A DNA stretch of 64,000 nucleotides from Barthelona sp. PCE (taxonomy: Eukaryota). This document shows positions 9,435 through 63,754 of the stretch, piece by piece. The stretch lies in contig JAUFOR010000008.1 of the NCBI GenBank assembly GCA_040285745.1, forward strand, positions 1-64,000. The letters are read 5' to 3'. Under the pieces are notes generated by a model. It made no database searches. It was not told where the DNA came from and saw only the letters and a list, made by a program, of their open reading frames with translations. Numbering within the stretch: position 1 is the first letter of the stretch; each line of letters starts with the position of its first letter. Made by a program: the position numbers and the translations under genes.

Positions 9435-9518
9435 TACTAACAGTTAGCAGAAGACCAAGGAACAGTACATACGAGAATCCGGGACAGCTTGCTCGAAAAC
9501 TAATAAACTATTTACTAC
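4597..9518 (+). mobile_element. CRE-clade (RLE-type) non-LTR retrotransposon, copy 1 core (AGGTCCTCTGG ... AATAAACTATTTACTAC)
   Basis: Ends were defined by comparing the six copies. Encodes RT and a C-terminal restriction-like endonuclease. No LTRs. Confidence 0.92.
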
Positions 9519-9786
9519 AAAAATGAAGTTAAAACGTATAAAAACGTAAAAAAAAACAACTCACAAAAACTACGGTTTTCAATATAGAACACTTAAAAAA
9601 AGTGTGATTGTTGACATTAATCAGACCTCAAACGATATTAAGTTCATTATAGGCAATATAATGATTGAAAAAAAAAGCAAAATTTTTCTACTTTCTAAAT
9701 AACCTTGCTCCTTATTCCTATAGACCTGAAAACACGTTTACAGACCGTTTTCGTGCATTCTGACGGTTCAAAAAATGCAAATAAAA

Positions 9787-9905
9787 AGCTTACAGCACTT
9801 GGGATTCCCGCGGGCTCTCGCAACGCAGTACTAACCAAGCCCTAACCTGCTTAACCTCAGTGTTCGGGATGAGAACTGGCGTTTCCAGGTTGGTATGGCC
9901 GAAGC
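9787..9905 (-). rRNA. 5S rRNA: 5S rRNA gene
   Basis: The reverse complement GCTTCGGCCATACC...CCGAACACTGAGGTTAAGC...GGTTAGTACT...GGGAATCCCAAGTGCTGTAAGCT fits the eukaryotic 5S consensus. About 119 nt, with paired ends and an oligo-T Pol III terminator. Confidence 0.96.
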
Positions 9906-10009
9906 TGGAAATCTTAGTCGATTTTCAAAACTCGGATCTACATACCAAAATGTTGTAAAAAAAAATCTCAAGTTCGTGGCTTCACTAATAAATTCAATGG
10001 AGAAGGGCG

Positions 10010-10645
10010 TTATCCTCTATCCTACACCTTGGATGGTTTACTGAAGTGACAGCCTGCATGTTGGGAGGGCAGACAGAACGAACCGTTAGACAGGACGGGT
10101 ACGGATCAATCAAGATACCGCCGCACGCTACGTACCCGTAGAGCCATGATTAGTGGCTAACTGTCTCGCTATTGAGAAAATATGACGAAATTTTTTGTAA
10201 AATTTCTTGATAAAACTTACCTGCGTTCTTTCTGCACTAGGATATAATTTATGCAGAAGATGATGAAAGACTTTCTTGGATAATCCAGCACAGAATGTGT
10301 GCGGAGTAGTTTTTTCCAAGCTCACGGAAAAACAACAAAAAGTTTCGAAGATTATGTCGAAATTTAACTTTCTGGTTTTTTGTCTTTTTTAATTTTTTTG
10401 AATTCAGGAAAGAAATCGAAAAGCAGTTACTCGAGTCCGAGTAACTTAGCTAGGATTATTCTTTAACTCTCACTATCAGTGTATGTCATCTAGGTTTCGG
10501 GTGCATCAAGATTCCGATTGCCATCAACTACATTATCCTCTATCCTACACCTTGGATGGTTTACTGAAGTGACAGCCTGCATGTTGGGAGGGCAGACAGA
10601 ACGAACCGTTAGACAGGACGGGTACGGATCAATCAAGATACCGCC
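10010..10645 (-). repeat. Element A 3' split direct repeats B1-A2-(270 bp)-B2
   Basis: 113-bp repeat 10010-10122 = 10533-10645. 140-bp repeat 10393-10532 = 22974-23113. A2 and B1 abut, as in a circle-junction template. Confidence 0.93.
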
Positions 10646-11802
10646 CATTCTCGTATCTGGTTTATACTGTACAGTTCCCCCGGCATGGCGTACTCCAGGT
10701 CGTGAATATCCAGGTAATACTTATTCATGGTTTCATTGGCGCTCCAGCCCCCAATCTGTCTGGCTGTGTCTTTGTCACCATGAATTTTGATAATATCTTG
10801 GCATCTCCCCGCTCTTATGGCGTGGGGGTTGAATCTCGCTCCAGGCGGTGCACCTATGAGGTTTGGATCGTCAAAGACGGTGTTAAACCTTTTTAGAATT
10901 TTTGCTTCCCGGTCTTTTGCTCCTGTACCTAGGAGTAACGCGGTGCCCTGCCGCTTCGTTTCGAGTGCATGCACAATAAACGGCGCAAATACACTTTCGT
11001 ACCAATATTTTTGGGGAATTGTTGCAAAACGTCCTTTTCGGCTTTTCCCTTGCGTTTTATGCTTTGGGATCATCACTGAGAGGGATTTCTCCATGCTATT
11101 TTCATGAAGAGTGATCTCAAGGTGTCGTTTTTCTATAAAATTCAATTCTCCCGATCTACAACCGAGAATGTAGTGGATCGACAGTATTTGGCAGTCCAGG
11201 ATGCATTGTTCGACCTCCTGTGAGACCATAGCACTTATTTGGTCTCGTGGAGAAAAAATGTCCTCTCGGAGCTTCATGATAGACTCATGGGCGCTCTCTT
11301 GGACGAGGAACAGCAGCCTCTGGACCACAGACGCTCTTATAGCGCATTTATAACTGTATAATTTGGGGATTGCTCCACTTTCATCGGTTATGATCTTTGT
11401 ACGCGCTGAAATGAGGTACTGCCTGTCTTTATCGCAGGCGTCCTCCCAGCAACCGGTTGTAAGCAGTCTAATAACTCTCAGGGAGCTTCTTAGAAGGGAT
11501 CCGTATGTATCAAGAGTGCTACTCTTGTAATACAGGATTAGGGCTGTGTTGCCTTCGGGCGATTCGCCCTTTTCGGCTCTCTCCGCTAGGTCAGCTATGC
11601 ATAAACCTACTAACAGATTGCAGTGGCTTGGATTTTTTATCCAGCCATACATCCTCCTTATTGCATTCTGATTAGCTTCAATGTACTGTCTAAATAGTTT
11701 GAGGGCGGTCCTGGCTGTGCTTAAGGAACCTTTTCTGAAGAACAGCGCCAGGAGATCGTCAATTCTCATTGTATTGGCTGGAAACCTAAAGTGTTTCTTC
11801 AC
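10633..11802 (-). CDS. Tyrosine recombinase of element A
   Basis: Catalytic set R (GCRSGEL), K (KHKT), HxxR (HAIRAG), W (GGW), Y (KYY). The stop codon lies inside the B1 repeat. Confidence 0.93.
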   Translation of the reverse strand: MKKHFRFPANTMRIDDLLALFFRKGSLSTARTALKLFRQYIEANQNAIRRMYGWIKNPSHCNLLVGLCIADLAERAEKGESPEGNTALILYYKSSTLDTYGSLLRSSLRVIRLLTTGCWEDACDKDRQYLISARTKIITDESGAIPKLYSYKCAIRASVVQRLLFLVQESAHESIMKLREDIFSPRDQISAMVSQEVEQCILDCQILSIHYILGCRSGELNFIEKRHLEITLHENSMEKSLSVMIPKHKTQGKSRKGRFATIPQKYWYESVFAPFIVHALETKRQGTALLLGTGAKDREAKILKRFNTVFDDPNLIGAPPGARFNPHAIRAGRCQDIIKIHGDKDTARQIGGWSANETMNKYYLDIHDLEYAMPGELYSINQIREWAVS

Positions 11803-14800
11803 TATGAGGGGGGACGTCTATCTTCACGAAGTCAGTGTCGCCCTTCCACAAGCTTCCTGCTTGTACAGCCTTTGATTTGACAGGGAAAATTTTTTCCGGG
11901 TTGATGGTAATTTCGCACATTTCTTTCCATGGACGAACGAACTGCGATACCATACCCCACACGGGTGCAGATGGGAGAGGTTGTGGTAACTTCACTCTGA
12001 TAGTAACACCGGTCCTGAGGGCCGCTAGTAAAATAATTTCTAACGCCGCTGCTGCTGACTGGGCAGGGACCATCTGTTCGACTGTGTGGCTCTCTCTTCC
12101 GATCATATCTATCTCAAACTTCGGTTTAGAGCGGGGGACTGTGTATCTTATATCTTCCAGTCCCTCAACCACTGGTGTTGTATCAATTTTGTCTTCTTTC
12201 AGTTTTAAGAAGGGTGCCGTTAACTTGGGCAGTCCCTGTCGTCTCGATACGGGCATAAAAGCTAAATCGCTTTTAAATGTTTTTCGAAACAAGTTCATTG
12301 CCCGGATGCAGCCAACTGAGCGGCCGCTCTTGTCCTGTTTTGCTCTCGCTATGAGGGGGCTGGTATGGCCCGGCTCATAAGCGCTTGGGACGACAGAATT
12401 TAGAATTATAATCTCCTTTGGGGGAACGAGCTCTTGAAGGAATGTTCCCCTCGATTGTTTCCAGCAGACTGGCTCTCCACGTGAGGCCATGTCCGGAAGG
12501 TGATTAAGTACAGAGGGAACGTAAATCGCTTCCACAACAAGGTCCTTCTCTTGGCAGAATCTTGCCAAGGTCCGGGCAGCATCGTTGAGGACGGTATTGC
12601 GCGACGTTAGTTTGTTCGTCGCAGCTACCACATTAGTGTTATCGCAATACCAGACGAGATATCCATTGGATAGTTTGGACCCGAGGCTGTGCAGCATAGC
12701 CATCAGGGGTTCCATCTCCGCATGAGCGATCGACAGTTTTGTTTTCTGGATCGCTTTCGCTTTATCTTTTGCTGACAGCATGTTCAGCAAGTCGATGAGT
12801 TCATTCTTGGCAAGATCATTGCCGCCTACACTGCGAAGTAGCAGGTGCTCAAAACAGGTTTCGTCAACATCATCCGTTGCGAAAGCTGTGCCTGCGATAC
12901 CTATTTTCTCTTCACTTACAGCAGCGTCACTTATTAGGACCCACTTTTTTCTGGTGGAAAGAAGGGGTTGTGGTGGAAAATCGTGATCGGCTAAACTCGC
13001 AAGGGTACAAGCGAGGTGGTGTGCCTCGTTTGTACCGATGAATCCAAGTGGAGACCCGCTGGTAGGGTCTGTTGCCTTTGGCTGGGCCTCGATCTGGCCG
13101 TGTTCATGATGCTGGACCTCCTTCAGGTCTTGGTCGCCGATCGTGAGCGATCTCGTCATGAGCCACTTGGTTATTTTTCTAGGAATGCCATCTTTATCCT
13201 TTAGTGCTTCGTGTATGATGGCATTGATCGTAATGGCGGAGGCATGTAGCTTTCTGCTAGCCGCCCTAAACGCCGTGCACTTCGATGCAAGTTCTACGAA
13301 GTCTTTCAACGGGATTTCCTTGCATGATGTGAGCTTATGGGCCAGTTCTTGAGCCTTCAGCGCGATCTTACGGCAATTAGCATCACTTGGTGCTAATGCC
13401 ACTTTCATATTTGGATCGTCCGGCGATCCAAAGGTAGATGTGATGGTGAAACCTATCACATCTAATTTCTTACATGGTTCGACAGATTTTTTCTTGTTGA
13501 TAGTGATATCCAACCAGAAACAGATTAGCTTGAGCAGACGCATGGCGTCGCTAGCACTACGGTATCTGCCTCTTCGATCTGGGGATTGCCATCCGAAAAC
13601 ATCGTCTATGTAGGCCCATAGTTGGTAACCTAGAGCACGCATAGGTGCTAGGGCTAGGTTCATCAACGCTGAGAATATAGCGGGGCCAAACGTGACTCCG
13701 AAGCACAACTTTGTGCACCGGTAAAAGCCGCCGTTGAGGGAAAATGTAAAGAACTTTTGAAAGTCTTCCGCAATGGGGATGAGATGGAAGCCGTTGGATG
13801 CATCGATGGAGAACAAATCATCGTTCGGGTTTACCAGGTTAAATAACCGCACCTTGGGCAGTTCCATTGGGAACATGTTAAACATGTCGTTAATCGGGGT
13901 GCAATCAGTGATAATTCTTATATCACTTATTGAGACATCTTCGAAGCACTCCTCAATGTCTTCTCGACCGGCCCAGTCTTGGCTGAGGGCATCAATGGCC
14001 GATTGTTCGATGCCTTTGGGCACCACACCGATTTTAATAAAAGCTGTTTTTACGCCAACAGGGAGTTTCGACATTTCCGACACTGGGTCATGATCCAGCT
14101 TAACAAAGGCGTCGCTTTTTTCTATCTTTTCCTGTACTAGGAGGGAGATGCGTGATCCATCCTCAAACCAGTTTTCTTGTGGACCGTTAAACGGTTCTTT
14201 ACGGATTTGAGAAACGTTTTGATTGCTCATGACGTGATGGGCGCTTACTCCGTGCGTCAACATTGATTGAAGGTTGGTGGAATGGCCAACACTCAAGCCT
14301 GCGATTTTTGCCAAAATATCGATGCGTTGACGGGTTCGACGAGGCGCATATGGGCTCGTCTGTATCGTATGCTCCATGAATTCCTCTGCCTTGTCTAGAT
14401 CTATTTCTAGCTCCCGTATTTTTAGGCCGGGGATAGCGTCCATGAGAGACGCTGGCGGAGCTGGCTCAGCCCAACCAGATAGGTTGGGGGCCTGTATACC
14501 TACCGTCTCACTCGCTCTACGCTGGGGTTCCTCAATGCTGGCTGAGATTGGCCTGGCATTTTTCTGTACCGCAACGTTAAAGGCGGTTTTGAACCCCTCA
14601 GCACTCAGAGTAGGTTCTACTGGACCTACAACTGGGGAGACGCGAGGTTTTGATGGTGGTGGTGGAGGTGGCAACCCCTGAACAGGTTCTGGTGCGATAG
14701 TGTGGGATTTTAGGGCTGTGACGCGCGCTATGTCCATGTATAGGTCCCTATCGCGGATGGCAGCCGCTAAATCTGCCTTAAGTTTGGGGATAATGGCGCT

Positions 14801-14971
14801 TTTTTGTGCTTCAGCTTTACGCTTTCTGCGCTTTTGATCCTCCAAAAGATCTCGGATTTCGAGAAGGGTATCGTCGTGTGGGTCCAACGGCACCTCACAG
14901 TGCTGTGGCGACTCGACGCGGGTGGAAAGCCTCTCAACTGGGTTAGATTTACAAGCGAGAGACTCGTCATC
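11786..14971 (-). CDS. Pol of element A: reverse transcriptase + RNase H + degenerate C-terminal domain (frame open from the gag stop)
   Basis: RT: RIITDC, IDASNGFHLI, LCFGV, YIDD, INKKKS, VIGF. RNase H: ISDAA, HAEM, YCDN, NHLPDMASR. Confidence 0.93.
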   Translation of the reverse strand, partial: DDESLACKSNPVERLSTRVESPQHCEVPLDPHDDTLLEIRDLLEDQKRRKRKAEAQKSAIIPKLKADLAAAIRDRDLYMDIARVTALKSHTIAPEPVQGLPPPPPPSKPRVSPVVGPVEPTLSAEGFKTAFNVAVQKNARPISASIEEPQRRASETVGIQAPNLSGWAEPAPPASLMDAIPGLKIRELEIDLDKAEEFMEHTIQTSPYAPRRTRQRIDILAKIAGLSVGHSTNLQSMLTHGVSAHHVMSNQNVSQIRKEPFNGPQENWFEDGSRISLLVQEKIEKSDAFVKLDHDPVSEMSKLPVGVKTAFIKIGVVPKGIEQSAIDALSQDWAGREDIEECFEDVSISDIRIITDCTPINDMFNMFPMELPKVRLFNLVNPNDDLFSIDASNGFHLIPIAEDFQKFFTFSLNGGFYRCTKLCFGVTFGPAIFSALMNLALAPMRALGYQLWAYIDDVFGWQSPDRRGRYRSASDAMRLLKLICFWLDITINKKKSVEPCKKLDVIGFTITSTFGSPDDPNMKVALAPSDANCRKIALKAQELAHKLTSCKEIPLKDFVELASKCTAFRAASRKLHASAITINAIIHEALKDKDGIPRKITKWLMTRSLTIGDQDLKEVQHHEHGQIEAQPKATDPTSGSPLGFIGTNEAHHLACTLASLADHDFPPQPLLSTRKKWVLISDAAVSEEKIGIAGTAFATDDVDETCFEHLLLRSVGGNDLAKNELIDLLNMLSAKDKAKAIQKTKLSIAHAEMEPLMAMLHSLGSKLSNGYLVWYCDNTNVVAATNKLTSRNTVLNDAARTLARFCQEKDLVVEAIYVPSVLNHLPDMASRGEPVCWKQSRGTFLQELVPPKEIIILNSVVPSAYEPGHTSPLIARAKQDKSGRSVGCIRAMNLFRKTFKSDLAFMPVSRRQGLPKLTAPFLKLKEDKIDTTPVVEGLEDIRYTVPRSKPKFEIDMIGRESHTVEQMVPAQSAAAALEIILLAALRTGVTIRVKLPQPLPSAPVWGMVSQFVRPWKEMCEITINPEKIFPVKSKAVQAGSLWKGDTDFVKIDVPPHSEETL

Positions 14972-15252
14972 TCACTTTCTCCTGCTTCGCCGCGGTCTCC
15001 TAGGTTGCTTATACTTGGAGACGCCCTTGGGGGACAACGCGTCAATGAACAGCGTCGGGCGGCCGGGGAGGTGTCTTACGAGGAAATTTATCTCATTCAC
15101 ACAACTTGCAATAGCTGAGGCGTCGGTTTCCGAGATTCTTTCCAAGGCCTTCATGTAATCAGAGTTTCTATGGCCGATCCAGAGGCTGATGGCGGTGAGC
15201 ATGACGGGGCGAGTTTCCTCCGAGACTTCGTCGCTGCCTATGACTGCCATCA
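14972..15252 (-). CDS. 3' part of the element A gag-like ORF1
   Basis: Joins in frame to 21864-22143 when element B is removed (HCILDL-MAVIGS). Basic C-terminus KQPRRPRRSRRK. Confidence 0.85.
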
Positions 15253-15387
15253 TCTTGTTGCCCCTGGCTGTCTGTTGATGTCTACTGAGAGTAAAGAAGA
15301 CGAGAAAGAGGTGGAAAACGTAGATTTACGTTTCTTCCCTCTTTTGAGACTTATTATTTTATTTATTTTAAGGAATCGATACGAAAG

Positions 15388-16413
15388 ATGTACGATTTTA
15401 GTGGAGATGGACGTGCAGTGGCAAGATTTCTGCACGAGACGATATTGGAAAATTCAAATGAAAAAGATTTCATTGTGCGTGCTTTACGCATGTTTTCGAT
15501 TAAATACAGGAGGACTACCGATAGTGTCCTTAAGGAACATATTGAGGATGTCCTACTCAAGCTCCTTCCACTCTGTTTGAAAGCTCCTGCATGCTCTAAG
15601 AAGATTGGAGAGTTGGTGGCTAAAGATGATGTTAAGCAACAAAGTGGTAGGGAGGACAAAGTAGTGTCGGAAGTATTTGTAACTGAATTTTTCGATTCTT
15701 TAAAGGAGAATTGTGCTGACCAGGATGTCGGTACTGCTACGTCCTTTAAAGCCGTTGCTGAGACGATTGATATGCTACGGTTTACGTTCCCCTATGAAGA
15801 TCCAAAGGGTGAAGAACATGAGAGGACTATTGTTATTGAGAACCATAAATCGGAGGCCGAACATATTGAAACGTTAGGGAGTTTCTTCTCATTATCGCTG
15901 GATAAGGAGACTTTGCCGCCGATTGGAGAGATTCAAAAGTGCGTCGAGAGCTTAGGTGCTATGAATCCTATTAGGATGGCTTGGGATGGTAAATCTGTAC
16001 GAGATCTTGCTGCCAAGAAGTTGGTGTCATTTGATGACAAGATCAACAAGCATCTGAATAGGATTACGACGTTTAATGGATATATCGCAGATATTATGGC
16101 TGATGTGTTGAAGAATGATTATTTCGATGATAACGATCAGCTTATAAGTTTCATGAAGATGATGTTGTGCCCGAAGACATGGGTCACCATTTTTGCGCAG
16201 GAGGCTATTTATCACCCTGAGCGAATCGAGGGTAGGGCTCAAGAGGCTGCTAACCAGATGGCTTGGGATTTCTTTAAGTCAATTCGGGAGAAAGCTGGCA
16301 TTTTTGAGGAAGAATTTGTTAGCAAACCGAGGGTTAATAACAAACCTCGTTCGAATGTTGTCCATAAGACCTCATCTACTAAGACTTCATCTAAGTCTAA
16401 AGGTGGTAAATGA
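15388..16413 (+). CDS. gag-like ORF1 of element B (341 aa)
   Basis: First ORF after A1, with a basic C-terminus. Assigned by position; no CCHC knuckle seen. Confidence 0.8.
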   Translation: MYDFSGDGRAVARFLHETILENSNEKDFIVRALRMFSIKYRRTTDSVLKEHIEDVLLKLLPLCLKAPACSKKIGELVAKDDVKQQSGREDKVVSEVFVTEFFDSLKENCADQDVGTATSFKAVAETIDMLRFTFPYEDPKGEEHERTIVIENHKSEAEHIETLGSFFSLSLDKETLPPIGEIQKCVESLGAMNPIRMAWDGKSVRDLAAKKLVSFDDKINKHLNRITTFNGYIADIMADVLKNDYFDDNDQLISFMKMMLCPKTWVTIFAQEAIYHPERIEGRAQEAANQMAWDFFKSIREKAGIFEEEFVSKPRVNNKPRSNVVHKTSSTKTSSKSKGGK

Positions 16414-19400
16414 GGAACGGCCAGTGGTTCGTCTGGTTCGTGTAGTAAATCAGCGAAATCACAAGGCCTTAAATTTAAACCCCCTGATATTAAATCTAAC
16501 CCCCCTGAGCCGCAGAGCTCTAACGTCCCCTGTGCTGCTTGTACTGATAGGGTTGCTAGGATGGAAAGACAAATCCTGAAGAACAAAATGGACGTTGAAT
16601 TTATTAGTAACTCGTTGTGTGAAGCTTCATTGAAGTTATGCGATGATTCAATGGCGTGCCATGCCCTCCATGACCCTGGTGGTTGTGTTGAGAAGGAAAA
16701 GAAGCCCTCAGTTGCAGTGCAGAAGGATCTTAAAAAATCCGTGATTTTGCACGATAATAAGAAATTGATTGGCCAGAGACCCTTGTTCATTGCTCCTGAC
16801 ATTGCTAATAGTGATTGTAATGCTAGAACTCGCGGCACAGATAATTTTTCTAAGGTTCTCCTTAAAGGTTGTTCGTGCGATGATGATATTGCTCCTCCCG
16901 TGCGTAAACCGATTGGCAAACCCAATTGTGCTGGTAAGATTGCGAAGCCTCTTGTTGCTAAGAAGATTGTAGAAAAGCCCGTTAAAAAGGCTGTGATACC
17001 GTCCACGCCGGATAAAGAAGCGAAACCTGTGAAAAACCCGATACCGAAACCTGTTCCAAAGAAGGTTAAGAAGAAAAAGCCGAAATTGAAAGAAAGAAAG
17101 CATAAAGTGCCGTTATCGAAGTTTCCAGCTATTGAAGAGAGCAAGGTATTGAAGAAGCTTGATAAGATGGAGAAGACTGTCGATAAACTAACGAAAGCAA
17201 TTACCGGCAAGAAAGAACCCCATCTCGTTACGGTTAAGGATCCTTCCATTATGAAAGATCCTCCTATCATTGAGAAGGACACTTCTCCCCCTGATGACAG
17301 TGACTCCCAACTGTTTGTTAAGGATGACAGTGGCTTATTGTCTTTAGACCCGAAGACTGAGGCGTTTGATGATGAATTGGCTAGAATCAATGATATGAGT
17401 AAGACGTTACCTGCTACTATGAAGAGACCATCTGCTGCAGTACTGGGTACGAAGGAAAAACGTCAATATTTTGATGATGAAAACGTGCTGCTCTTAGATA
17501 GTAGCCCTGATGACTTGTTTACCTTACCGTTTCACTCAAAATTCTGGAGATTGATATTGAAACTATATATTCGTCAATCACATGACGGTTTCGTCGCTGA
17601 CCTGACAGAACGAGGAAGAGAGGTATACCGCGCCTATAGGGGCGGTCCCGATCAGGATTTGCATGTCCCGTTTCCGAGACCCGGCCCAGGAGCTGCTCCT
17701 GGTTGTGCTCTTAATTTCCAAAGTCAGTTAGCTTACTTGACTGTCGTAATGGGTGGAAAATTTTCTCCTTCAATGACATTTGCTATGGAAATTTTGAAAC
17801 CTCTGGATGATCACCGTTCGTTCTTTAAGTATCCGGAACAAGCTAAAATTCTTGAGCTCTTTGCGAAACGTGCTGGTGTTTATTCCTCAAAAACGTTTGA
17901 CAGGTTACTGTTGAAGAATACTGAGGATTTCTTGGACATGGATAAGCTTCCTGCTTTGAAAACGAAAGCTCAGGAGATACTCAGTGACATTGACAACTAT
18001 GATGACAACTGGATCGATGACGACCGTGTTGCTGAGGTAAAAGAGAAATTGCTGGCGGACATGGTTAAAGTTGATCCCAGCGATTACCATAAGATAAATG
18101 CTATTAACAGGATTGGCTCAGTTAAGAAAGGTGTTGACGGAGTGCGTCAGATATTTGACTCTTCTGCTGCCGGCGGTGTTCATGAGGTAAGCAAACACTT
18201 TATTTTTTCCCCATTCAAGATTGATGAACTTGCATTGATCCCAAGGGGTTCTTACCTTGCTAGTATCGACCTTAGCTCTAGTTTCCTGCACTTTGATATG
18301 TCTAAGAACATGGATATCGCTAATTGTATGGCTTGTATTATTGATGGTGAAGTTTATGTGGCTGATCGTGCACCATTTGGTGCCGTGATTAGTAACAACC
18401 TCTTATGTACGTTGACTGGATTGTTAACTGCAATAATGAACAACTTTGATTTTCCTTTTGTTAGTTATGTCGATGATACTCTTGCTTTTGGTACTGAATC
18501 GCAGGTCACACGTGCTATTCAGACATACACAACGATTTGCAAACTGATTGGTCTGAAAGTTAATGACGAAAAATCAGTTACATCCCCAGCTGCTTCGGTT
18601 GATTTCTTAGGCTTTACTATCAAGTCAAACCCCGAGAACCGCGACGATCACATCAAGATTCGCCTATGCGAGAAGAGAAAGTTGAAAATGATTGAAGAAT
18701 GCAAAACGACTTTCTACACACTCTTCGGTTCTACTAAGGTTGCTGGAGGCTTCATTGTCAATGAGAATGTTACGCCTTTCGTTGAAGACCCTGACTCCCT
18801 GGAGAAGGAAGAGCTAGAATCGACCCTTGGTGATGATGTTGTATTGAAAGACGACGATGGTAAGTATATTGTGCCATCCTTATATGACATACAACGTCTT
18901 ATAGGGTTATTTGAATCTGCTGAAATATTGTCAACATTGTACACGATGGTGGCATCTCAACTCCGCGAACTTGTGCGAGATAACGTAAGATTCCACAAGA
19001 AGATCGGCGTGGATAGCAAAGTACCTGTGTTAACTGCTGAGGAAATGAAGAGATTACATGTTAAAGTACACAAATTTAGTATACTGAATGCAATCGCACA
19101 CGTCTTTGATTCTGAGTTATACCATAATGATTTCAAGGAGACTCGCATACGTTCGATGGACTTTACTACGTTTTCGGATGCTAGATTGAATGACTCAGTT
19201 GAAGGATACTCGGCTTTAATTTTTGATATGCATACTCTTGAGTGTAAGGGAATGTTCGCTGAGAGTGATGTGAAACCTGGCGATATGCATAGGAACGTTA
19301 AGGCTGAGACTGACAGCTATACGATCGCTGCTGCAGAGCTAAATCCGATTCTAAGAATGATTTCACTTAAAGCAGAACAATTGAGTAATTGCGGTGTTCG

Positions 19401-21549
19401 TGTTGTAACTGATAACACTGTAGTTGCATACAACTTGAGATCCTTGATGGCCCCAAGGAAGGGTGCACCTCCTGAGCTGAAGGCTGCCCTTATGGACTTA
19501 TTCGAAATTTGTTATTCTAATAATATTACTATCCGTGTTGCGTACATACAGAGCGGCAAGAACTTGGTTGCTGATTACTTGTCACGCGGAATTACAGTTA
19601 ATTATGATGAATTTATAAGTTTAGTTGGAAAGATGGATATACCTACTCTTATTCTAATTGAAAAAGGTATTCCTCCAACCTTTTCGTCACCGTTGTTGTT
19701 TGATGGTTTACCTGTCGCTGATGGTGTGTCAACCAAGGGTCTATCTAAGCGCCATAAACAGATGATGATGGCCGAGATCCAGTATGGTTACAAATTTTCT
19801 GATATCGGTCCTTACCGAGGTGTTCCTGGCGAGGGCACCAAGCAGGCCTTTATGCAGAATGAACTCGCTGGTTGTATGAAGGATGTGTACTTAACTAAGG
19901 ATGAGATCCAATTACAGATCACGGCTGGGAATCCGGTCATTTCAAAAATTGATATTTTCAATTCTTTCTTAGAGTACTCACAATTTACTGTATCGTACCG
20001 CAAGGAAGGAGAAGCACGTAGTACTTCTGATGATATTACCGTGAACCACATGTCTGTCCACGACGTGATTACACATGCTTGTTTTTCGGCTACTAGATAT
20101 AACAGTGTAATTAAGATCAGGTTCTCTGAACCCTGCCCATTTTCAGCTGCTTGGGCATTACATGAGGTGCGAATGATTGAATCTGATGGTGTCCAGAAGT
20201 TTGAGATGACGATCGATCCTGAATTTTCGGTTCATGCGTCGTCGAAGAGTACTGACCTTGGGTACTCAGGGGTTCCTACTAACCAGAGAGTTGTACGTAA
20301 GGAACTGATTCCTACTAAGAAGATTCTCCCCCCATTTAGTATTTCGAAATTTGAAGAATATGTCGACCAATTTTATCCCCCATCAAGAGCGAAAAGGATG
20401 GCCTCGAGAATTAAACTGTTTATCAAGTGGGTAATTGCCCGCTACAAGCTACCTAACGCAGTTATTGCGAGGAGATACTTGACAATCCACTATATTACCA
20501 AATTTATACATGCTAAATACCTTCAGTTGAAGAATGTAACATTACGCAATGGCAAAACGAAGCAGTTTACGATGGTAAAACAGAGTACAGTTTTAACTTA
20601 CATCACTTCTCTGAAAGAAGCTGTTGTGGTGTATTTACACTTGTTCTGGGGAAAGGAATTAGAGTATGACCATGCATGTAAGCTGTTAATGAACTGTACA
20701 AAGAATTTTTATAAGAAACATGAAGAGCCCCCTACTGGCATGCGTATTGCCTGTGGAAAGACTACTGTTTTGGTTACTGCTAACGAGCTTGTTAAACAGT
20801 TGTTAATGGAACTTGATGATGAGGATGATGCTATTGATAGGTGTGCCCGCTGTCAATATTATATTGTCGTGCTGGGTATCATGGGCATACTGTTTAACTT
20901 TGCTGCCCGACCTAGCGACCTTAAGTATATTGCAAGAGGTAGTATAAGGTGTGATATTAACAATCCTACCGTTTCGTACCGTAAGACTAAGACTACTAAT
21001 CCTGGAAGGAAGGATGTTACCCTAATTGGCAACCTTTCTAATGATATGGTCCTTAAAAAGTGGATTAAGGCGATGTGTGACTTAATCAACGATACTAGCG
21101 ATTCGGACCTGCTATTTGGAGAAGATGCGTCAGTTATATTATGTGATCGTTATGTTGCAACGGTGAATGAAGCTCTTCAAACGATAAAAGATCATTTAGG
21201 TATTTTATATGATCAGTACATCGAAGATGGTGCTGATAGTATGGGACTAGCTCCAGATAAAGCTCTGGTTGATGCACACAGCTTTAGAGCTGGCCGTACC
21301 GTCGAATGGCTAAATTCAGGAATTGATACCAATGAGCTGGTTAAATGTGGCCTTTGGGCTTCATCGGTATCTCCTGAGGAACACTACAATGTTCCATGGT
21401 TGCTAGAACCGCCCAATGCTGAGTTTACGAGTGAAATAGAAGAAGAAACGAATACCCTACTTGAGTCCATTATGGATGGGTGTAGGTACGAGGTACCTGC
21501 GTCCTCAGTAGGCTCGTCTTCTTCTGAATCCCACTCTGAAACTCAGTAA
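16414..21549 (+). CDS. RT-RNase H-tyrosine recombinase polyprotein of element B (first ATG 16561, 1662 aa; frame open from the gag TGA)
   Basis: RT: RQIFD, IDLSSSFLH, APFG, YVDD, VNDEKS, FLGF. RNase H: FSDA, AAEL, VTDN, NLVADYLSR. YR: AARPSDL, KTKT, HSFRAG, GLW, EHY. Confidence 0.95.
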   Translation, partial: GTASGSSGSCSKSAKSQGLKFKPPDIKSNPPEPQSSNVPCAACTDRVARMERQILKNKMDVEFISNSLCEASLKLCDDSMACHALHDPGGCVEKEKKPSVAVQKDLKKSVILHDNKKLIGQRPLFIAPDIANSDCNARTRGTDNFSKVLLKGCSCDDDIAPPVRKPIGKPNCAGKIAKPLVAKKIVEKPVKKAVIPSTPDKEAKPVKNPIPKPVPKKVKKKKPKLKERKHKVPLSKFPAIEESKVLKKLDKMEKTVDKLTKAITGKKEPHLVTVKDPSIMKDPPIIEKDTSPPDDSDSQLFVKDDSGLLSLDPKTEAFDDELARINDMSKTLPATMKRPSAAVLGTKEKRQYFDDENVLLLDSSPDDLFTLPFHSKFWRLILKLYIRQSHDGFVADLTERGREVYRAYRGGPDQDLHVPFPRPGPGAAPGCALNFQSQLAYLTVVMGGKFSPSMTFAMEILKPLDDHRSFFKYPEQAKILELFAKRAGVYSSKTFDRLLLKNTEDFLDMDKLPALKTKAQEILSDIDNYDDNWIDDDRVAEVKEKLLADMVKVDPSDYHKINAINRIGSVKKGVDGVRQIFDSSAAGGVHEVSKHFIFSPFKIDELALIPRGSYLASIDLSSSFLHFDMSKNMDIANCMACIIDGEVYVADRAPFGAVISNNLLCTLTGLLTAIMNNFDFPFVSYVDDTLAFGTESQVTRAIQTYTTICKLIGLKVNDEKSVTSPAASVDFLGFTIKSNPENRDDHIKIRLCEKRKLKMIEECKTTFYTLFGSTKVAGGFIVNENVTPFVEDPDSLEKEELESTLGDDVVLKDDDGKYIVPSLYDIQRLIGLFESAEILSTLYTMVASQLRELVRDNVRFHKKIGVDSKVPVLTAEEMKRLHVKVHKFSILNAIAHVFDSELYHNDFKETRIRSMDFTTFSDARLNDSVEGYSALIFDMHTLECKGMFAESDVKPGDMHRNVKAETDSYTIAAAELNPILRMISLKAEQLSNCGVRVVTDNTVVAYNLRSLMAPRKGAPPELKAALMDLFEICYSNNITIRVAYIQSGKNLVADYLSRGITVNYDEFISLVGKMDIPTLILIEKGIPPTFSSPLLFDGLPVADGVSTKGLSKRHKQMMMAEIQYGYKFSDIGPYRGVPGEGTKQAFMQNELAGCMKDVYLTKDEIQLQITAGNPVISKIDIFNSFLEYSQFTVSYRKEGEARSTSDDITVNHMSVHDVITHACFSATRYNSVIKIRFSEPCPFSAAWALHEVRMIESDGVQKFEMTIDPEFSVHASSKSTDLGYSGVPTNQRVVRKELIPTKKILPPFSISKFEEYVDQFYPPSRAKRMASRIKLFIKWVIARYKLPNAVIARRYLTIHYITKFIHAKYLQLKNVTLRNGKTKQFTMVKQSTVLTYITSLKEAVVVYLHLFWGKELEYDHACKLLMNCTKNFYKKHEEPPTGMRIACGKTTVLVTANELVKQLLMELDDEDDAIDRCARCQYYIVVLGIMGILFNFAARPSDLKYIARGSIRCDINNPTVSYRKTKTTNPGRKDVTLIGNLSNDMVLKKWIKAMCDLINDTSDSDLLFGEDASVILCDRYVATVNEALQTIKDHLGILYDQYIEDGADSMGLAPDKALVDAHSFRAGRTVEWLNSGIDTNELVKCGLWASSVSPEEHYNVPWLLEPPNAEFTSEIEEETNTLLESIMDGCRYEVPASSVGSSSSESHSETQ

Positions 21550-21863
21550 ACACACTAGCAAGTTTTACTCCTTTGATAGAGTAACATGCACTCGAAGTAA
21601 GAATCATCTTGTTGCCCCTGGCTGTCTGTTGATGTCTACTGAGAGTAAAGAAGACGAGAAAGAGGTGGAAAACGTAGATTTACGTTTCTTCCCTCTTTTG
21701 AGACTTATTATTTTATTTATTTTTAAACTATTGTGGGTGTAGGTACGAGGTACCTGCGTCCTCAGTAGGCTCGTCTTCTTCTGAATCCCACTCTGAAACT
21801 CAGTAAACACACTAGCAAGTTTTACTCCTTTGATAGAGTAACATGCACTCGAAGTAAGAATCA
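21477..21863 (+). repeat. Element B 3' split direct repeats B1-A2-B2
   Basis: The 130-bp B repeat occurs twice, flanking a ~123-bp copy of the 5' A repeat. Confidence 0.95.
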
Positions 21864-22855
21864 AGTCTAGGATACAGTGGAGGAATGCCACTGGGACTGC
21901 AGTTTTTTGACGACTAGCGTGGTATTGTCTTCTCTTCCAAGAATTTTCAGGGTTGCCGAGGCAAGTGAAGCTCTCGTTTATAATTCTATACCACCGGGAG
22001 CTATCGTTGGAGACATTGTTTTCTTCTAAAACGGGCAGGATTCCTGGGAAGAGGCCTCCGTTGTTGTAGTTGAGGGTTCTGGTGGCGCCGAACGTGGTTT
22101 TGAGGATTTCAATCAGGTTATCCCAGCCTGGCTCTGGGGCCAAGCTTGGGCTCTTCCGTCATCCGAGCCATGAAGCCTTTTATCCTTCCCCATGGCCTCA
22201 GGGTCAAATGGGCGGGCGAACGCATTCATGGATGGGTCTGTACCCCCTTGTGGAACCACAAAGTTGGGGGCCATTTGCTCCATCAGCGCCTCCTCGACAT
22301 ACCGGGATATGTCGCCCGAATTCCCCCTGAATGTATCGATAATCTCGTCCCGCATTGCCACGATGTTACTCATGGCAGGGGCTTGAGGACCGCCTCAAAC
22401 GCGGCCTCATCGAAGTCGCTGGTCGCCTGGAGCTTCGCACGGGCACCCTGTGCAAATTTCCTGACACGGTCATGCAGAGGATACACAAGCTTAAAAAGCA
22501 TGTCCCAGGCATTTTGTGCGACTCCTGAACTCGACCTCCTAAGGTCGGATGTTGCCTTTCTTATTTCGGCCGCGGTGGCCTCCGCGGTGGGCATGCCCAT
22601 GAAGAGAAGAAGTAACGCGTACTTCTCCCTTTCACCGTCCTCGCTGCTGCCTCTGTCCCACACCGCAGTGGGGATGGGCTCGTTATGGTTTAGCAGCGGG
22701 ATCTCATCTACAATGTGCACCAATGATGCCAAGAGGACGGGTAGTACACTCTTGCACAGGTGGGACACTTTCTTGAGCTTCCAGAGCTCTGGACTATCCT
22801 TGAGGCTATACATGGCCTCAAAGACCATCTCTGCCATGTCCACGACCCTCCTCAC
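21864..22855 (-). CDS. 5' part of the element A gag-like ORF1 (fragments 22370-22855, 22113-22373 and 21864-22143; breaks fall at G/C runs)
   Basis: The second copy bridges the breaks (FEAVLKPPPMSNIVAM; EEPKLGPEPGWD). First ATG is at 22837. Confidence 0.8.
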
Positions 22856-22973
22856 GGGCTCCTTGTAGTTTGTTTTTAAATTTCTAAAACTTAAACATTC
22901 TATTCCCTCATTTTACATAACTCGACATTGAACAAAGGATTTAAATCTCAATATATATCAATCTTTGACGGGT

Positions 22974-23113
22974 TTTTTTTGAATTCAGGAAAGAAATCGA
23001 AAAGCAGTTACTCGAGTCCGAGTAACTTAGCTAGGATTATTCTTTAACTCTCACTATCAGTGTATGTCATCTAGGTTTCGGGTGCATCAAGATTCCGATT
23101 GCCATCAACTACA
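22974..23113 (-). repeat. Element A 5' repeat A1
   Basis: Identical to 10393-10532. Confidence 0.93.
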
Positions 23114-23122
23114 AGCAGTAAC

Positions 23123-26100
23123 AGGTCCTCTGGGGCGCCCCACGTACTCTACGACCACCAATATACGCCATTTGAGCCCATATGCCTGCGTAAGGTAGAT
23201 GAAGACTTTGGTAAATTTGGGTCACGTTATGCCGGTTTTGTCAAGATACTTGTCCACAAGCTCTACTCAGAGTGTGCCTACTGCAAACTTCAGAATTTAT
23301 TTTTCCAAGATATGATTTGTGGTAGCTTATGGAGTTCACGATTTTTAACATCACTTCATTCGATCATTATGCCCCGCACACGGGCCCAAGCTGTCCCCCA
23401 CGACACTGTGTTATCATTATATGCATGCCACGACGCTATTTTCATGGTTTCGTGCGTTTTGCAACTGTGTCGTGTTCTGTCGCTAAAACTGACAAGTAGT
23501 GTGGTAGAATATCTCTACCGACAGTCACAGCTCAACCTTGTGACCCTTTCTCCTTACAACACATTATCAGATACATTTTCAGATACTGTATATTTACCTT
23601 CCCCGCTTCCAGAGTGGGATGATGATGATGATTATTATTTGTATGAAGAGCAAGAAGTATCTAGGACTCCTCCTGCAGCTTATGTACCCAATCCAGAAAT
23701 AGAGAGGGTATATGAGGATATCGAAACAATGTTAGCCAATCCAATTGTTACTACGCCACATAGTCCTTTGCAAACACTTATGTATCTTAAGGAAGATGTC
23801 AAGTACCAACTAACAGAGTTCGGTGAGCAGATGTTGTCAATAATTCAAAGGACGAAAGTTTCTTCAAACAACAGGAGAGCCCCGTCCATAGAAATAATTC
23901 GACAAAATGTTCATGATCAGTGGAGTGGCTTGTGCACTGACGCAGATTGGTTGTCTTTACGCAGTATTGAAGGTGAGAAGATGGAAACCGTTGGTGTACG
24001 TCTTTCAAGCCCAGGTACACGAGGACAACTCGTTATTGCACATGCTATCCTGAAAGTATGCAGCACTGGCGTTGATGCAAACGAGATTGTACATGCTATC
24101 AATGAGAAGTTTGGAGACGAGAGATTCACACATTTGGATGACACTATAAGGCGTGTCGCTTCTGAGGAAAAGGAAGATGAGCGTTGCAGGATTTTACATC
24201 CGGCAGCAATCAATTTCGTTAGAAGTGTGTCTTGTATGAAATTCAGAATGGACTCGCGTGGCCAGAATGTTTATCATTGGCAGAATGTAGAACCGTTCAC
24301 GGATAATTTCTATTTCGTGATGTTTGCGTTTATCAAGGCCTGTTTGGAATTTAATGGAAGTAGAAACTTGTACGAGCTCTTCCCATTTTTTAGTAGTAGA
24401 ATGATTCCTCTACTCAGTCATATTTTTTAAGGTGGAAAGTGATCCAGAATCGCATGATTCTGTCTTCCAAGAAGTTGGAGCGCCAGCATTGGTTAACCGG
24501 AACCAGTCACAGTCACATACATTGGATGTTGACCCGGTAGATACTAACCCGACGCCTTCAATTCCTGTTACGAGCAGTGTTACCAACCAAGCTCCTCCTA
24601 TTATGAGCAATGTTACATACCCAGTTTCAAGTTCTCGTATGGAATACACTTTCCCCATTTTACTGTACGACCCGCTGGTCCGATTCAATCGACTTTGTGC
24701 AACTGACGGTAATAGCGAAATTGCTGAGAGAAGAGTTGCTGAAGATTTCTTTGGAGAACTTCTGGGCGCTTATTGCGCTAATCCACCGCGATTGCCTCAG
24801 TGGCAGAGCGGTAATATTGAAACACTTGTGAGAATCAAGGAGTTTGTCAACAAATTGTCCGGGGTCCTGGCTCTACATTCTTTACGACCAGACCTAGACA
24901 AAGACGATGCTCTAGAAGTTTTTAATGAGTTTGTTTTTCAGAAAGTTATCGAGAACCAAGATAATTTAATTGGTGATAAGAAATCAAGAAAGCTATATTT
25001 CTGTGTCCTGAAGATTGGTTTGTTAATACGGAATACTCCATTACGTGAGTCTCAACGATGTATAGGCGAGGCTCTAATAGTTGCAGCTTCTGCGCTATGT
25101 TTTGGTAAGACGCCGAGGCAACGTTCCAATCAGCCATCCGTTGAGTCTAGGGGAGTCTGTAAGCCTTCGTATGAAGAAGTACGCAGACGCCAACCAACCA
25201 GGAAAGGCCATAAGGCTAGCAAAGAGTCAAGGTACCATGCCTTTATCAGATACTAACGTGCTGGAACAGATGCAATCAAAGCATCCAGTCAGTGCACCAG
25301 TTTCTGATGCGATTCTGCGCGAAACCATGAGTTCTTTCAAGAGAGGTGAGTGGGACCCTGAGGAATTCATAATATCGAAAGATATGGTGTATGAGACCAC
25401 CAAAAAAGTCAAAAAGTACATTTCTGCCGGTGCCGATGGAGTGATGCCATATTTACTTAAGTTATTTGTGGCTGAAATCTATCGTAACGATCGCTACATG
25501 GATGCTTTTACTCAAGTTATCAATGATTATGCGTTCGGATCGCGCCCGTGGGCCCTTTGGAATATCCGACTAATTGCTCTTAACAAAAAGCATGTGGAGG
25601 AGCTTCAAGAGGGTGAGCATATGCCTGTACGCCCCATCGCAGTTGCCTCTGCACTCGGTGGTATCGCTGATAAGATCATCGCGAGTCAAGATCTGAAGTT
25701 TCAGTCTGAACGTGTCAAAAAGTACTTGTTTAAACACAAACAATTCGGTGCTGGGATGCGGGATGCTACTGCTTTGGTCGCAAACCTCGTGGATGTTAAT
25801 CTAAAGCGAAGTGATCGTAATGTTGCTCTTGTTATTGACATTGCTAACGCCTTCAACAGCGTTCGTCGTGACAAGCTGCTGCATATTGTCGCTGCACATG
25901 CTCCTTGGTGCTTCCAAGCATATCATCAGATGTGCAAAAGGCCAATTCCGATTTGGTCGAATGGAGAGCGCCTTCCTTTTGATAGTTGTATGGGCGTGTT
26001 ACAGGGTAACGCAACGTCTCCGTTGTTGTTTGCTCTTCTTATTGCTGAAGTTTTGAAGGATACGAAAGCCGTAGCCCCAGATTCAGTCAATATGTACGCG

Positions 26101-28049
26101 TATGCTGACGATATTTATATTGTTGGTGAACCATCAACTGTCATGTCAACCTTTGATGTAATCAAGGGTAAGCTCGAGTTCTATAACCTGAAAGTGAATG
26201 CTGAGAAGTGTGAGCTGGTGGGGTATGGAGCCGGGAGTATTGCTTTCGCTTCAAGGATATTTCCAAGAGGTGAAGAGCAAGAGAACATCGCTACCCACAA
26301 CTTGTTTTTAGCTTTTTTATCAATTGTTAGGTACTCAGATTGGCGACTTTAATGTTAGTCATGCATGCGCAAGATTTAGCAATGGCGTCAAACAACTTCT
26401 CGAGTATATAAGTCCAGGGACAGCTTTGTTCAAGTATCTTGCTTCTATGTCGATTGATCAGATGCTCATTCATCACGTACGCTCGGTGACTCTCACTGAA
26501 GATGCGGTTGATGATATGGAAAGGACCATCAAACAGAATTTACTTCTTGAGATGATTCCTGGAGCCGATGAGTTATCGATCGATGAAGCTCCAACTCTCC
26601 GTTATCCTTTGTCTCTTGGTGGGACTGGTTGTCTAGACTTTGTGTTTCTCCACAAAATAGCTGACTTGGCAAGTACCGCTTCGGTAAGTAGCTCAATCAA
26701 GCGTTTCAATTTGATTGAGTGGTCGGATTTCACTAGGCTTAGCCCACGTTATTTGGCCGCAGCTAGATTCAACTATGACAAAGATAACAAACCCTACTTT
26801 ATGCCGGATGCTCATTACCAAGATGAGGATTGCCAACACAAACTTGTGGAAGCAGTTTCTCTTAACAGTGAAACAAAGCATGAATTTGCTTCAAATTTAC
26901 TGTGGCTTGCCGTAAACTATGGGCAGCACACTCAGATGGAGTCGTACGATGTTGAGATCAGTATGGCTACTAATATTGTGCGTCAAAAAAGCAAACTACA
27001 AAACATTCTCACAAAACGTTTTTTTCGAATTGTTTGATTATGCGATCAAACATTGTCGTTTCCATCCAGAATCATTTATATCCCGAGACGCCTTGATGTC
27101 TCAGCGTTCTGTTGCCTGGTCACTCGATGCTACCGTCGCCACATGGCCCCAAAGGTCAGTTGCCAATATTCATTCAATGTTTGATGAGCGTTACATGTTT
27201 GGTTATGCTTTAGCCGGTATATACCAATTGTTGTTCCCTGAACTTCGCGAAATGTACGCCTCTGGGCGGTGCAACTTCTGTGGAGAGAAGGTTTTGGACA
27301 GAAGAAGTCATCATTATTCTTGTTCAAAAAATCACGGTCTTGTCGTCAAACTGCACAACAACATTCTTGAGAAAACAGTTGATACTGTTCGAAAGTCAGG
27401 AAATGCTCATATTTTCAACTTGGATAAGCCAATTCCTAAAAGAAAGTTTGAGGAGTACAGTGACATACATCGTGTACAATTGGGTTGGACACATGAACGG
27501 TACGAAAGTGGTGAGTCGTGCCCCAATCGGAAAGAACGTAAGCGACCAGATTTTGCAATACTGGAAGCAAGCGGACCCAAGGTTGTGGTGGATGTTATGA
27601 CTACATCGCCGTTCACGAGCAAAGATCGAGGTCACGTACGTGCAGCCTATTTTTACAAGAAGCTAAATAAGTACAAAAACTTTGATGACCCGCCGGTCAA
27701 GATTATGGCCGTTGCGCACGGAGGAGCCATTTGGGATCCGATGTTGTGGGAACCGACGTCGAAGGCACGCGAGAAATACAATTTCGAGCTAGCTTACACG
27801 TCGTGGGAACAGGTGCTCGAGTCGTTGAACGAGAGATCAACGTCGCAATCAATTAAGACCAGTGGAACGAAACTTAAAAAAGGTCTTAGCTACCATCTAT
27901 TTGCTTTTCACGCTTATGCTATGAAGAACATTATGAGGGCAGCAAGGAGCAGGCGTAGAGTCTGATACTAACAGTTAGCAGAAGACCAAGGAACAGTACA
28001 TACGAGAATCCGGGACAGCTTGCTCGAAAACTAATAAACTATTTACTAC
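23123..28049 (+). mobile_element. CRE-like retrotransposon copy 2 (preceded by only the last 9 bp of the 31-bp repeat)
   Basis: Near-identical to copy 1. The ORF is broken only at homopolymers. Confidence 0.92.
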
Positions 28050-28791
28050 CGCTATTTTTTCGATGATTCCGAGCAGTAACATGAAAATCGCATCGCCTGT
28101 CATATTATTTGATCATAAACGAGACTATTTGCAGAATATGGACCAAGAAGGTTTTAGACCTGATGGGATACATGGAACACGCGTAGAAGGCAGCCCTGAA
28201 CCCGTTCAGACTACTGGAAACGCCGAAAATGGTGTTAGTTTTGAGAAAAAAAAAGACTCGTGTTGTGATGGAAGTGCAGCTATTTCAAACTCGGAGGACG
28301 TCGTTCTGGTGTCGTTACGATCGCTGAATACGAAAAAATGGGCACAAATAGTGAATATGAAGAAAACGTTTTTAGTTGTGATGCAGAACGATTCTAAAGG
28401 GGTTAGACCCAGCAGATCAGCATGTATCGGGTGCGTAGACGCGCTTTTACAAGCACAGAAACGCCCAAACAACTTTGAACAAAATTCAAATTCCAAAACT
28501 TCTACAGTGATGGTTTTTTCGCTATTTCCATGTCCTGGCCCTCCTCAAGAGGCGCTTTCGACGTATTCAAGCAGGGAATTTTTGTTGCAGATGCATGATG
28601 CGGGGATTTTGTTGTTTTACAGCAGATTTCAGCCATGGCAAGACACTACGTCAAGCTTTGTTAGAGTGTTTTATCCCATGGGTCCCCCTGCGGGCATGAG
28701 ACATCTTTATAATCATGCCATCTCGCTTTACAATTTTCAATCAATTTCAAGCCGTTTCGCCGCTATTTTTTCGATGATTCCGAGCAGTAAC
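28050..28791 (+). repeat. Complete 711-bp module with 31-bp direct repeats (28050-28080 and 28761-28791)
   Basis: The exact 31-bp repeats are 711 bp apart. A 237-codon open frame runs into the CRE ORF. Confidence 0.93.
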
Positions 28792-33979: not shown

Positions 33980-34097
33980 AGCTTACAGCACTTGGGATTC
34001 CGCGGGCTCTCGCAACGCAGTACTAACCAAGCCCTAACCTGCTTAACCTCAGTGTTCGGGATGAGAACTGGCGTTTCCAGGTTGGTATGGCCGAAGC
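33980..34097 (-). rRNA. 5S rRNA: 5S rRNA gene, second copy
   Basis: Matches 9787-9905 except for a 1-nt homopolymer deletion. Confidence 0.93.
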
Positions 34098-47319: not shown

Positions 47320-47328
47320 AGCAGTAAC

Positions 47329-61962: not shown

Positions 61963-62050
61963 TTCACATGGACAATAGATGCATGGAAATTATTCTTGAA
62001 TTCAATTAGTTGAGAAGAAATTCTTTTCTGAAGAATGTCAAATTTCATTT

Positions 62051-62812: not shown

Positions 62813-63118
62813 TACCTTATCCGTGGTTGTAGCCTCATTTCAAAATAGCACGAGTATTTAAAAGCAAAAAAAAGGCTTGCTAGCATTACACGCTTCAATA
62901 ATGAAACAGTAGCTGTAGAAAACATTGTTCTTCATCGTAACTGTATAGAGGCACATTCTGGGTGTCAAGAAACGGTGGCATGGTGGCCACAGTGCATTAT
63001 GCTTGTATCAAAGTATCTTCAATCCGAGGAGAATAAATGATAAATTTTGAACCAATTGTGAATTTGGAGAATTTGTTTCAAATTTAATATCAAATGATCG
63101 TTTTACTACTAAACTGAA

Positions 63119-63713: not shown

Positions 63714-63754
63714 AAAAAGAAAATATTTTTTGAGGATAGTTTGAACATTCTAGA

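Follow-up and report, generated by a model that had tools for sequence, protein, structure and literature searches.

The first 64,000 nucleotides of contig JAUFOR010000008.1 of Barthelona sp. PCE (GenBank assembly GCA_040285745.1), a metamonad and free-living anaerobic protist, constitute the window analyzed here. Positions 15249-21863 hold a tyrosine recombinase (YR) retrotransposon of 6.6 kb on the plus strand, with the layout A1-[gag-TGA-linker-RT-RNase H-X-YR]-B1A2B2, in which RT is the reverse transcriptase, X a domain of about 250 amino acids (aa), and A and B the repeats. Its components, including its open reading frames (ORFs), and a second copy are as follows.

15249-15369, plus strand: A1, 5' split direct repeat, 121 bp, 100% identical to A2; starts with ATCA, which is common to the end of B
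15388-16413, plus strand: gag-like ORF, 341 aa, mostly predicted helices, with a basic Ser/Lys-rich C-terminus (...SKSKGGK); ends in TGA
16411-16413, plus strand: in-frame TGA between gag and pol, context AAA TGA GGA
16414-17946, plus strand: stop-free spacer (49 codons to ATG 16561), then a long Lys/Pro-rich linker before the RT
16419-16468, plus strand: predicted hairpin, candidate read-through stimulator, with its first base at +9, counted from the U of UGA, after a 5-nt spacer
16561-21549, plus strand: pol-YR ORF from its first ATG, 1662 aa, identical to NCBI protein P0151
18232-18621, plus strand: RT core; motif A Asp at 18268-18270, YVDD at 18466-18477
19150-19590, plus strand: RNase H domain; D 19177-19179, E 19336-19338, D 19411-19413, D of ADYLSRG 19573-19575
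19591-20340, plus strand: X domain of about 250 aa, with conservation across the Barthelona families; at the position of the Dam-like methyltransferase in DIRS/PAT
20341-21420, plus strand: YR; R 20908-20910, K 20989-20991, H 21277-21279, R 21286-21288, W 21355-21357, Y 21385-21387
21477-21606, plus strand: B1, internal repeat, 130 bp, 100% identical to B2; overlaps the final 24 ORF codons
21603-21723, plus strand: A2, internal repeat, with a 4-base overlap (ATCA) with B1
21734-21863, plus strand: B2, 3' terminal repeat, ending ...GAATCA
39433-46068, plus strand: second copy of the YR element (copy 2), inside a duplicated 23.6-kb block; frame broken many times

An earlier note on this DNA had described an ORF at 15388-16413 ending in AAA TGA, after which the same frame runs open via ATG 16561 to a TAA at 21547-21549. 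These coordinates hold, and the ORF list and its translation show that the frame from 15388 comprises 2053 codons before its final stop, with one TGA as the only interruption. The repeats were located by self-BLAST of 9401-23200 with a word size of 7. As they are 100% identical and the 2053 codons are otherwise intact, this copy (copy 1) appears to be young. By identity and architecture, 15249-21863 is almost certainly a young, apparently intact YR retrotransposon of Ngaro-type architecture. Its assignment to the YR retroelements, also proposed in the earlier note, is borne out by the presence of RT, RNase H and YR and by the lack of a detectable DDE integrase or protease.

The catalytic motifs of RT, RNase H and YR had been reported to lie in one ORF, and all three domains are supported by Pfam, Foldseek or invariant residues. 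The RT scores 41.3 bits with Pfam RVT_1 (E 1.8e-10), above the cut-off of 29.6, and its YVDD is invariant in an alignment of Barthelona pol proteins. A profile of three Barthelona pols searched against the PDB returned caulimovirus, foamy-virus and group II intron RTs, with matches to the RT only. In the RNase H domain the D/E/D and ADYLSRG residues are invariant in the same alignment. A low-confidence AlphaFold2 model of RNase H, X and YR together (mean predicted local distance difference test score, pLDDT, 39) had as its top Foldseek matches in the PDB almost only type-1 and retroviral RNase H, with a best E of 4e-3 and a target-normalized template-modeling score of about 0.56. The RNase H piece alone gave nothing useful in Pfam at E<=1 and only chance matches in a phmmer search of the PDB. 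Only the RNase H part of the AlphaFold2 model was recognizable, and the model was uninformative on X and YR.

The YR residues R, K, H-x-x-R, W and Y are invariant in all four aligned Barthelona YR domains. A YR profile searched against the PDB gave 17 matches at E<=10, every one of them Cre or Tre (best E 0.0036), covering Cre residues 149-202 and in one case 285-324. In the ESM Atlas the domain scored 0.98, beside eukaryotic ALOG/Phage_integrase clusters; no Pfam family at E<=1 and no PHROGs integrase family was found for it. No match to a DDE integrase (Pfam rve) was found in the element. The earlier note's remark that there is no evident protease agrees with the absence of any Pfam protease match and of a conserved D[ST]G motif upstream of the RT, such motifs numbering one in the pol of the plus-strand element and none in either of two related Barthelona proteins, P0003 and P0004. 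YR retrotransposons normally carry neither a protease nor a DDE integrase (PMC3783388).

The X domain forms conserved blocks in the Barthelona alignment, and residues 1147-1420 of P0004 match a minus-strand YR element in the window by tblastn. No Pfam family (E<=1) and no relatives beyond Barthelona were detected for it. Its best ESM Atlas score, 0.87 for F5/8 type C, is below the level that counts and is a lead only. Comparison by hhalign with the post-RNase H, Dam-bearing tails of DIRS-like relatives gave probabilities of at most 0.1%, and Pfam Dam had no match in pol, P0003 or P0004, where a methyltransferase may be too diverged to detect. The label gag is given to the first ORF by its position. 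No Pfam family matched this ORF, a homologue search returned only gag itself, BLASTP detected no similarity to the N-terminal parts of the other three Barthelona families, and its AlphaFold2 model has a mean pLDDT of 37.9. The spacer and linker at 16414-17946 together encode 511 aa (13.7% K and 9% P, with one 110-aa stretch of 28% K), and the linker has no Pfam family above noise.

The gag-like ORF (gag') in which the plus-strand element is nested belongs to another YR element, a distant relative on the minus strand. The parts of this host element are as follows.

10010-15252, minus strand: 3' part of the host element, with the end of gag', TGA, RT-RNase H ORF, YR ORF and repeats
21864-23113, minus strand: 5' part of the host element, with A1' and the start of gag'
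23113-22974, minus strand: A1'
14974-14972, minus strand: TGA after gag'
14971-11786, minus strand: RT-RNase H ORF, 1061 aa
11802-10633, minus strand: YR ORF, with a weak Pfam Phage_integrase match (E 0.006) below the cut-off
10645-10533, minus strand: B1'
10532-10393, minus strand: A2'
10122-10010, minus strand: B2'

In the host element RT-RNase H and YR lie in separate frames with a 17-nt overlap, and 270 bp separate A2' from B2', an interval not present in the plus-strand element. When 15253-21863 was excised in silico, keeping one ATCA, a 191-aa ORF across the junction was obtained and the gag' frame was restored; excision of 15249-21863 restored no ORF across the junction. The insertion therefore occurred at an ATCA common to the target and to the B/A junction, without target-site duplication. 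A common ATCA core and the lack of a duplication are what would be expected of a YR recombining a circular intermediate. On the published model for split-repeat YR elements, a transcript from A1 to B2 would be reverse transcribed, with the internal B1A2 serving to rebuild a complete junction; the element DNA would then be circularized, and the YR would recombine the B/A junction with a chromosomal ATCA. The nested insertion thus offers a clean reconstruction of an empty site, with integration at a 4-bp common core.

The host element also provides the best evidence on the TGA. Its restored gag' ORF is in frame with the 1061-aa pol ORF, a single TGA lies between them, and the next ATG is 79 codons downstream. 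In both elements, then, gag and pol follow each other in one frame across a TGA, the gag C-terminus is basic and the stop context reads AA(A/G) UGA G, even though RT-RNase H identity between them is only about 25-28%. In addition, the start of P0003 coincides with the end of the gag-like part of P0004. The recurrence of this arrangement in distant elements, together with the start of P0003 at the same boundary, argues for the TGA as a feature of the lineage and not a lesion. For the plus-strand element alone, the chance that gag and pol share a frame and are joined by an open spacer is about 0.04, taking odds of 1/3 for the same frame and the frequency of 49-codon stop-free windows over the five non-coding frames (0.1-37%, mean roughly 11%); the same arrangement in a second element makes a chance origin less likely. 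An antisense ORF at 16239-17390 (minus strand, 383 aa) overlaps the pol linker; its frame is open in 37% of 49-codon windows, and it is probably a by-product of composition. An intron removing the TGA was considered and rejected, as GT...AG candidates around the TGA span only 19-22 nt and are not multiples of three.

The reliability of these frames depends on the assembly. The window contains a duplicated block of 23.6 kb (4095-27569 = 28290-51782, 98% identity), part of a higher-order duplication of 24.2 kb whose content is element A (another repeat, described below), 5S, the nested YR elements and element A. Copy 2 of the YR element lies within this block, and proteins P0001, P0002 and P0152 each derive from a part of it. 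Comparison of the two copies across the element shows 44 indels and 17 mismatches. Of the 44 indels, 29 are associated with homopolymers, which is the pattern of unpolished long-read error, and copy 2 looks like the same sequence without polishing. The genome is a Nanopore assembly with Illumina correction (PMC11316075). Since long-read indel errors destroy frames and never make them, the 2053-codon frame of copy 1 is real. The TGA letters reported at 40607-40609 are indeed present in copy 2, but this copy is not an independent witness, as it sits inside the duplicated block and both copies derive from one insertion. Three DNA runs (X1-X3) gave eight contig pieces, seven of them at 15519-15702 and several places within 18855-21349, with no differences in any. 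Across the duplicated units, ORFs are intact in some and shattered in others, and inter-copy differences are mostly homopolymer indels; this mixture points to a long-read assembly polished unevenly rather than to decay.

With the stop codon in place, Pol could be expressed by read-through. Most ribosomes would stop at UGA 16411 to yield Gag, and a minority would read through to yield a Gag-Pol-YR fusion of 2053 aa, which would set the Gag:Pol ratio without a frameshift. The 28 ATG triplets inside gag make leaky scanning to ATG 16561 implausible, such that some bypass of the stop would be needed. The hairpin 5 nt downstream of the UGA may assist; it has a predicted folding free energy of -19.6 kcal/mol (z -3.03), and none of 200 shuffled sequences was as stable. 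As the route to Pol, read-through is plausible and gains support from the second element, and we place it at about even odds. For the reading as a whole, combining a Ngaro-type element, its replication and its expression by read-through, we estimate a probability of about 0.55.

Several observations weigh against this combined reading. Among sliding 65-nt windows of the element, 79 of 2184 (3.6%) fold as well as the hairpin, and the corresponding hairpin in the host element does not stand out (z -1.33, matched by 19 of 200 shuffled sequences and by 31% of sliding windows). The TGA is followed by G, which is not the leakiest context for a stop. Open stretches of 49 codons are not rare in the element's sequence, pol has its own ATG 49 codons after the TGA, the host element has its gag' divided over two frames, and P0004 (1893 aa) appears to carry gag and pol without a stop. 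The assembly contains indel errors in repeats, and no contig piece from the DNA runs covers 16354-16574, where the TGA lies, or bridges the element. Validated read-through stimulators mostly begin at +12 or later (PMC13517186), as compared to +9 here. In the Candida element Tca2, a gag-UGA-pol junction with a predicted pseudoknot showed no read-through in a reporter (PMC2194720).

The main rivals to read-through are separate expression of pol and a copy-specific lesion. In the first, translation of Pol-YR would begin at ATG 16561, either by reinitiation or on a separate RNA (subgenomic, spliced or made from an internal promoter), and the shared frame would be incidental. A complete ORF of 1662 aa starts at this ATG, with about 560 aa before the RT is reached, the shared-frame odds are only 1/3 with an open 49-codon stretch in roughly 11% of non-coding-frame windows, and 3.6% of windows fold as well as the hairpin. 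In Tca2, a minor promoter lies in the gag-pol junction and the junction alone gave no read-through, though Pol was still concluded to come from gag-pol RNA (PMC2194720). Against separate expression, the distant host element has the same in-frame TGA with its first ATG 79 codons after the stop, and the 28 ATGs of gag make leaky scanning implausible. We consider separate expression unlikely, though more likely than the remaining alternatives.

A lesion or consensus error in copy 1 (e.g., from CGA, AGA, GGA or TCA), with one uninterrupted Gag-Pol-YR in the functional family, is less probable still. It would fit P0004, a single ORF from a gag-like N-terminus to YR, and single-ORF TATE copies are described for Bodo saltans (PMC6681497). 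The surroundings of the TGA are rich in Gly, Ser and Lys and would accommodate several sense codons one step away, both copies in the window derive from one insertion, and the Illumina-corrected Nanopore assembly (PMC11316075) shows residual errors in repeats. However, a TGA also marks the corresponding gag/pol boundary of the second element, P0003 starts at this boundary, and the remainder of copy 1 is intact over 2053 codons with 100% identical repeats, as befits a young copy. Residual assembly errors are also mostly indels and not substitutions, and P0004 is a gene model that might skip a stop through a predicted intron.

Alternative genetic codes occur in some metamonads. That the TGA is decoded as an amino acid, by a variant code or as selenocysteine, so that the ORF is simply continuous, is nevertheless very improbable, as several long ORFs in the window end in TGA (among them one of 1489 aa at 4096-8565 and the minus-strand YR ORF at 11802-10633), so that this codon is not reassigned there, no other in-frame TGA occurs in the 2053 codons, and a term search of the genome paper (PMC11316075) found neither "genetic code" nor "stop codon".

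An exhaustive HMMER search with the RT-to-YR part (1200 aa) against 1.84 billion representatives gave 276 matches at E<=0.001, four of them below 1e-30: two fragments of copy 2, and the Barthelona proteins P0003 (1518 aa, E 1e-38) and P0004 (1893 aa, E 1e-31), which are colinear with pol through RT, RNase H, X and YR. A Pfam scan of the next 76 of the 150 matches listed found RVT_1 in 76, Dam in 15, RT_RNaseH in 13, RT_RNaseH_2 in six, Phage_integrase in one and rve in none, a content that identifies DIRS/PAT-type pols as the nearest kin outside Barthelona. In a FastTree phylogeny of 46 rows (41 of the 150 listed matches, four Barthelona sequences and element A as outgroup, with no named reference elements among the rows), the four Barthelona families form one clade on long branches with a Shimodaira-Hasegawa-like support of 99. 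A search for pol homologues at near lengths found none beyond the window's own proteins, and a YR-domain profile search returned only P0001, a fragment of copy 2.

One 5S rRNA gene occurs per 24.2-kb repeat unit (9787-9905 and 33980-34097, both minus strand; Rfam scores of 103 and 96 bits). On one side of each gene lies element A, and on the other, about 105 bp away, the B2' at the 3' end of the minus-strand YR element; a 5S rDNA locus may be the site, or the target, of the transposon nest. Element A, with a unit length of 5.67 kb, has five copies, partly head to tail (4095-9518, 23114-28049, 28049-33711, 47320-51782 and 52399-58063), and an older copy at 13-4054 with 86% identity. It encodes ORFs of 1489-1538 aa with RVT_1 (E about 6e-19) and a second ORF of 311 aa. 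Element A was rejected as a YR element (hhalign probability 0.12%, PDB search without a match), and it has no match to P0003 or P0004. The repeat array stops at about 58063, and the G+C content falls to 0.37-0.39 over 58064-64000, where no Pfam family was found for an ORF of 734 aa at 59758-61962.

The earlier note had suggested an undescribed lineage on the basis of the layout, a claim that was overstated. An RT-RNase H-YR fusion is not new, since YR can lie in the RT-RNase H frame in fungal Ngaro elements (PMC3783388) and TATE copies with a single ORF occur in Bodo saltans (PMC6681497); the layout is unusual and not unprecedented. Three features look new: a Barthelona clade of great divergence, a gag-TGA-pol arrangement in the setting of a YR element, and the 250-aa domain that separates RNase H from YR. 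In the literature searched, which comprised sources other than subscription reviews, we found no description of an in-frame gag stop in a YR element and no report of YR retrotransposons in metamonads, and the group thus appears to be extended to Metamonada. On a more far-reaching reading, which is less likely than not, barthelonids would harbor a deep YR clade of at least four families, with a Gag-Pol-YR of about 2050 aa made by programmed UGA read-through and a domain of about 250 aa without known relatives in place of the DIRS methyltransferase.

If this is true, a dependence on recoding would be a first among YR retroelements. Of the retroelement orders, YR retrotransposons are the least understood, and how they set the Gag:Pol ratio is unexplained, as their ORFs usually overlap in different frames. 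A young, intact gag-UGA-pol element, with the arrangement repeated in a distant relative in the same genome, suggests a simple and testable expression mechanism, and the X domain is a candidate for a new accessory activity. The general picture of retroelements is unchanged, and the interest of these findings is mainly for transposon and recoding specialists.

In comparison with known systems, the in-frame stop recalls elements outside the YR group. In gammaretroviruses such as murine leukemia virus (MuLV) and in Candida Tca2, gag and pol are likewise separated by a single in-frame stop, soon followed by a predicted RNA structure. Unlike the Barthelona element, these are retroviruses or long terminal repeat elements, which encode a protease and a DDE integrase, and the MuLV signal is UAG with a pseudoknot at +12, rather than UGA with a simple predicted hairpin at +9. 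VIPER and TATE of kinetoplastids are also protist YR retroelements with split direct repeats. Their gene order is gag-YR-RT/RNase H; the YR is C-terminal here, and a VIPER-like assignment was rejected. DIRS1- and PAT-like elements have the nearest non-Barthelona RT-RNase H, with Dam in 15 of the 76 top matches. DIRS1 possesses inverted terminal repeats and an internal complementary region, neither of which was found in the Barthelona element; it had no inverted pairs (seed 20, minimum length 60), and self-BLAST of 9401-23200 gave direct repeats only, so that a DIRS1-like assignment was also set aside. PAT elements share the split direct repeats, but no methyltransferase was found in the Barthelona element by Pfam or hhalign, and a PAT-like assignment was not retained.

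The closest structural match is to Ngaro elements, known from zebrafish, fungi and Cafeteria, which have in common with the Barthelona element the split repeats, the order gag/RT-RNase H/YR, and the lack of a methyltransferase, protease or DDE integrase. Ngaro repeats are arranged as A1-[ORFs]-B1A2B2 (PMC8547959), and the Ngaro/VIPER group is defined by split direct repeats, internal repeats downstream of YR and no methyltransferase (PMC4157794). The Barthelona element has this same repeat arrangement, internal repeats downstream of YR and no methyltransferase found. Its placement as Ngaro-like is a structural one, which is a point against the combined reading. Compared with Ngaro, the Barthelona element is extremely divergent, such that Pfam misses its RNase H and YR, while Cafeteria Ngaro elements match PF17919 and PF00589 (PMC8547959). 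It also carries an additional conserved domain, X, of about 250 aa after RNase H and ahead of YR, a linker of roughly 560 aa before the RT, and a gag and pol in one frame split by a TGA rather than in overlapping frames, and its host is a metamonad. With these differences, the element fits the published Ngaro-like structural definition, and no new superfamily is needed to accommodate it.

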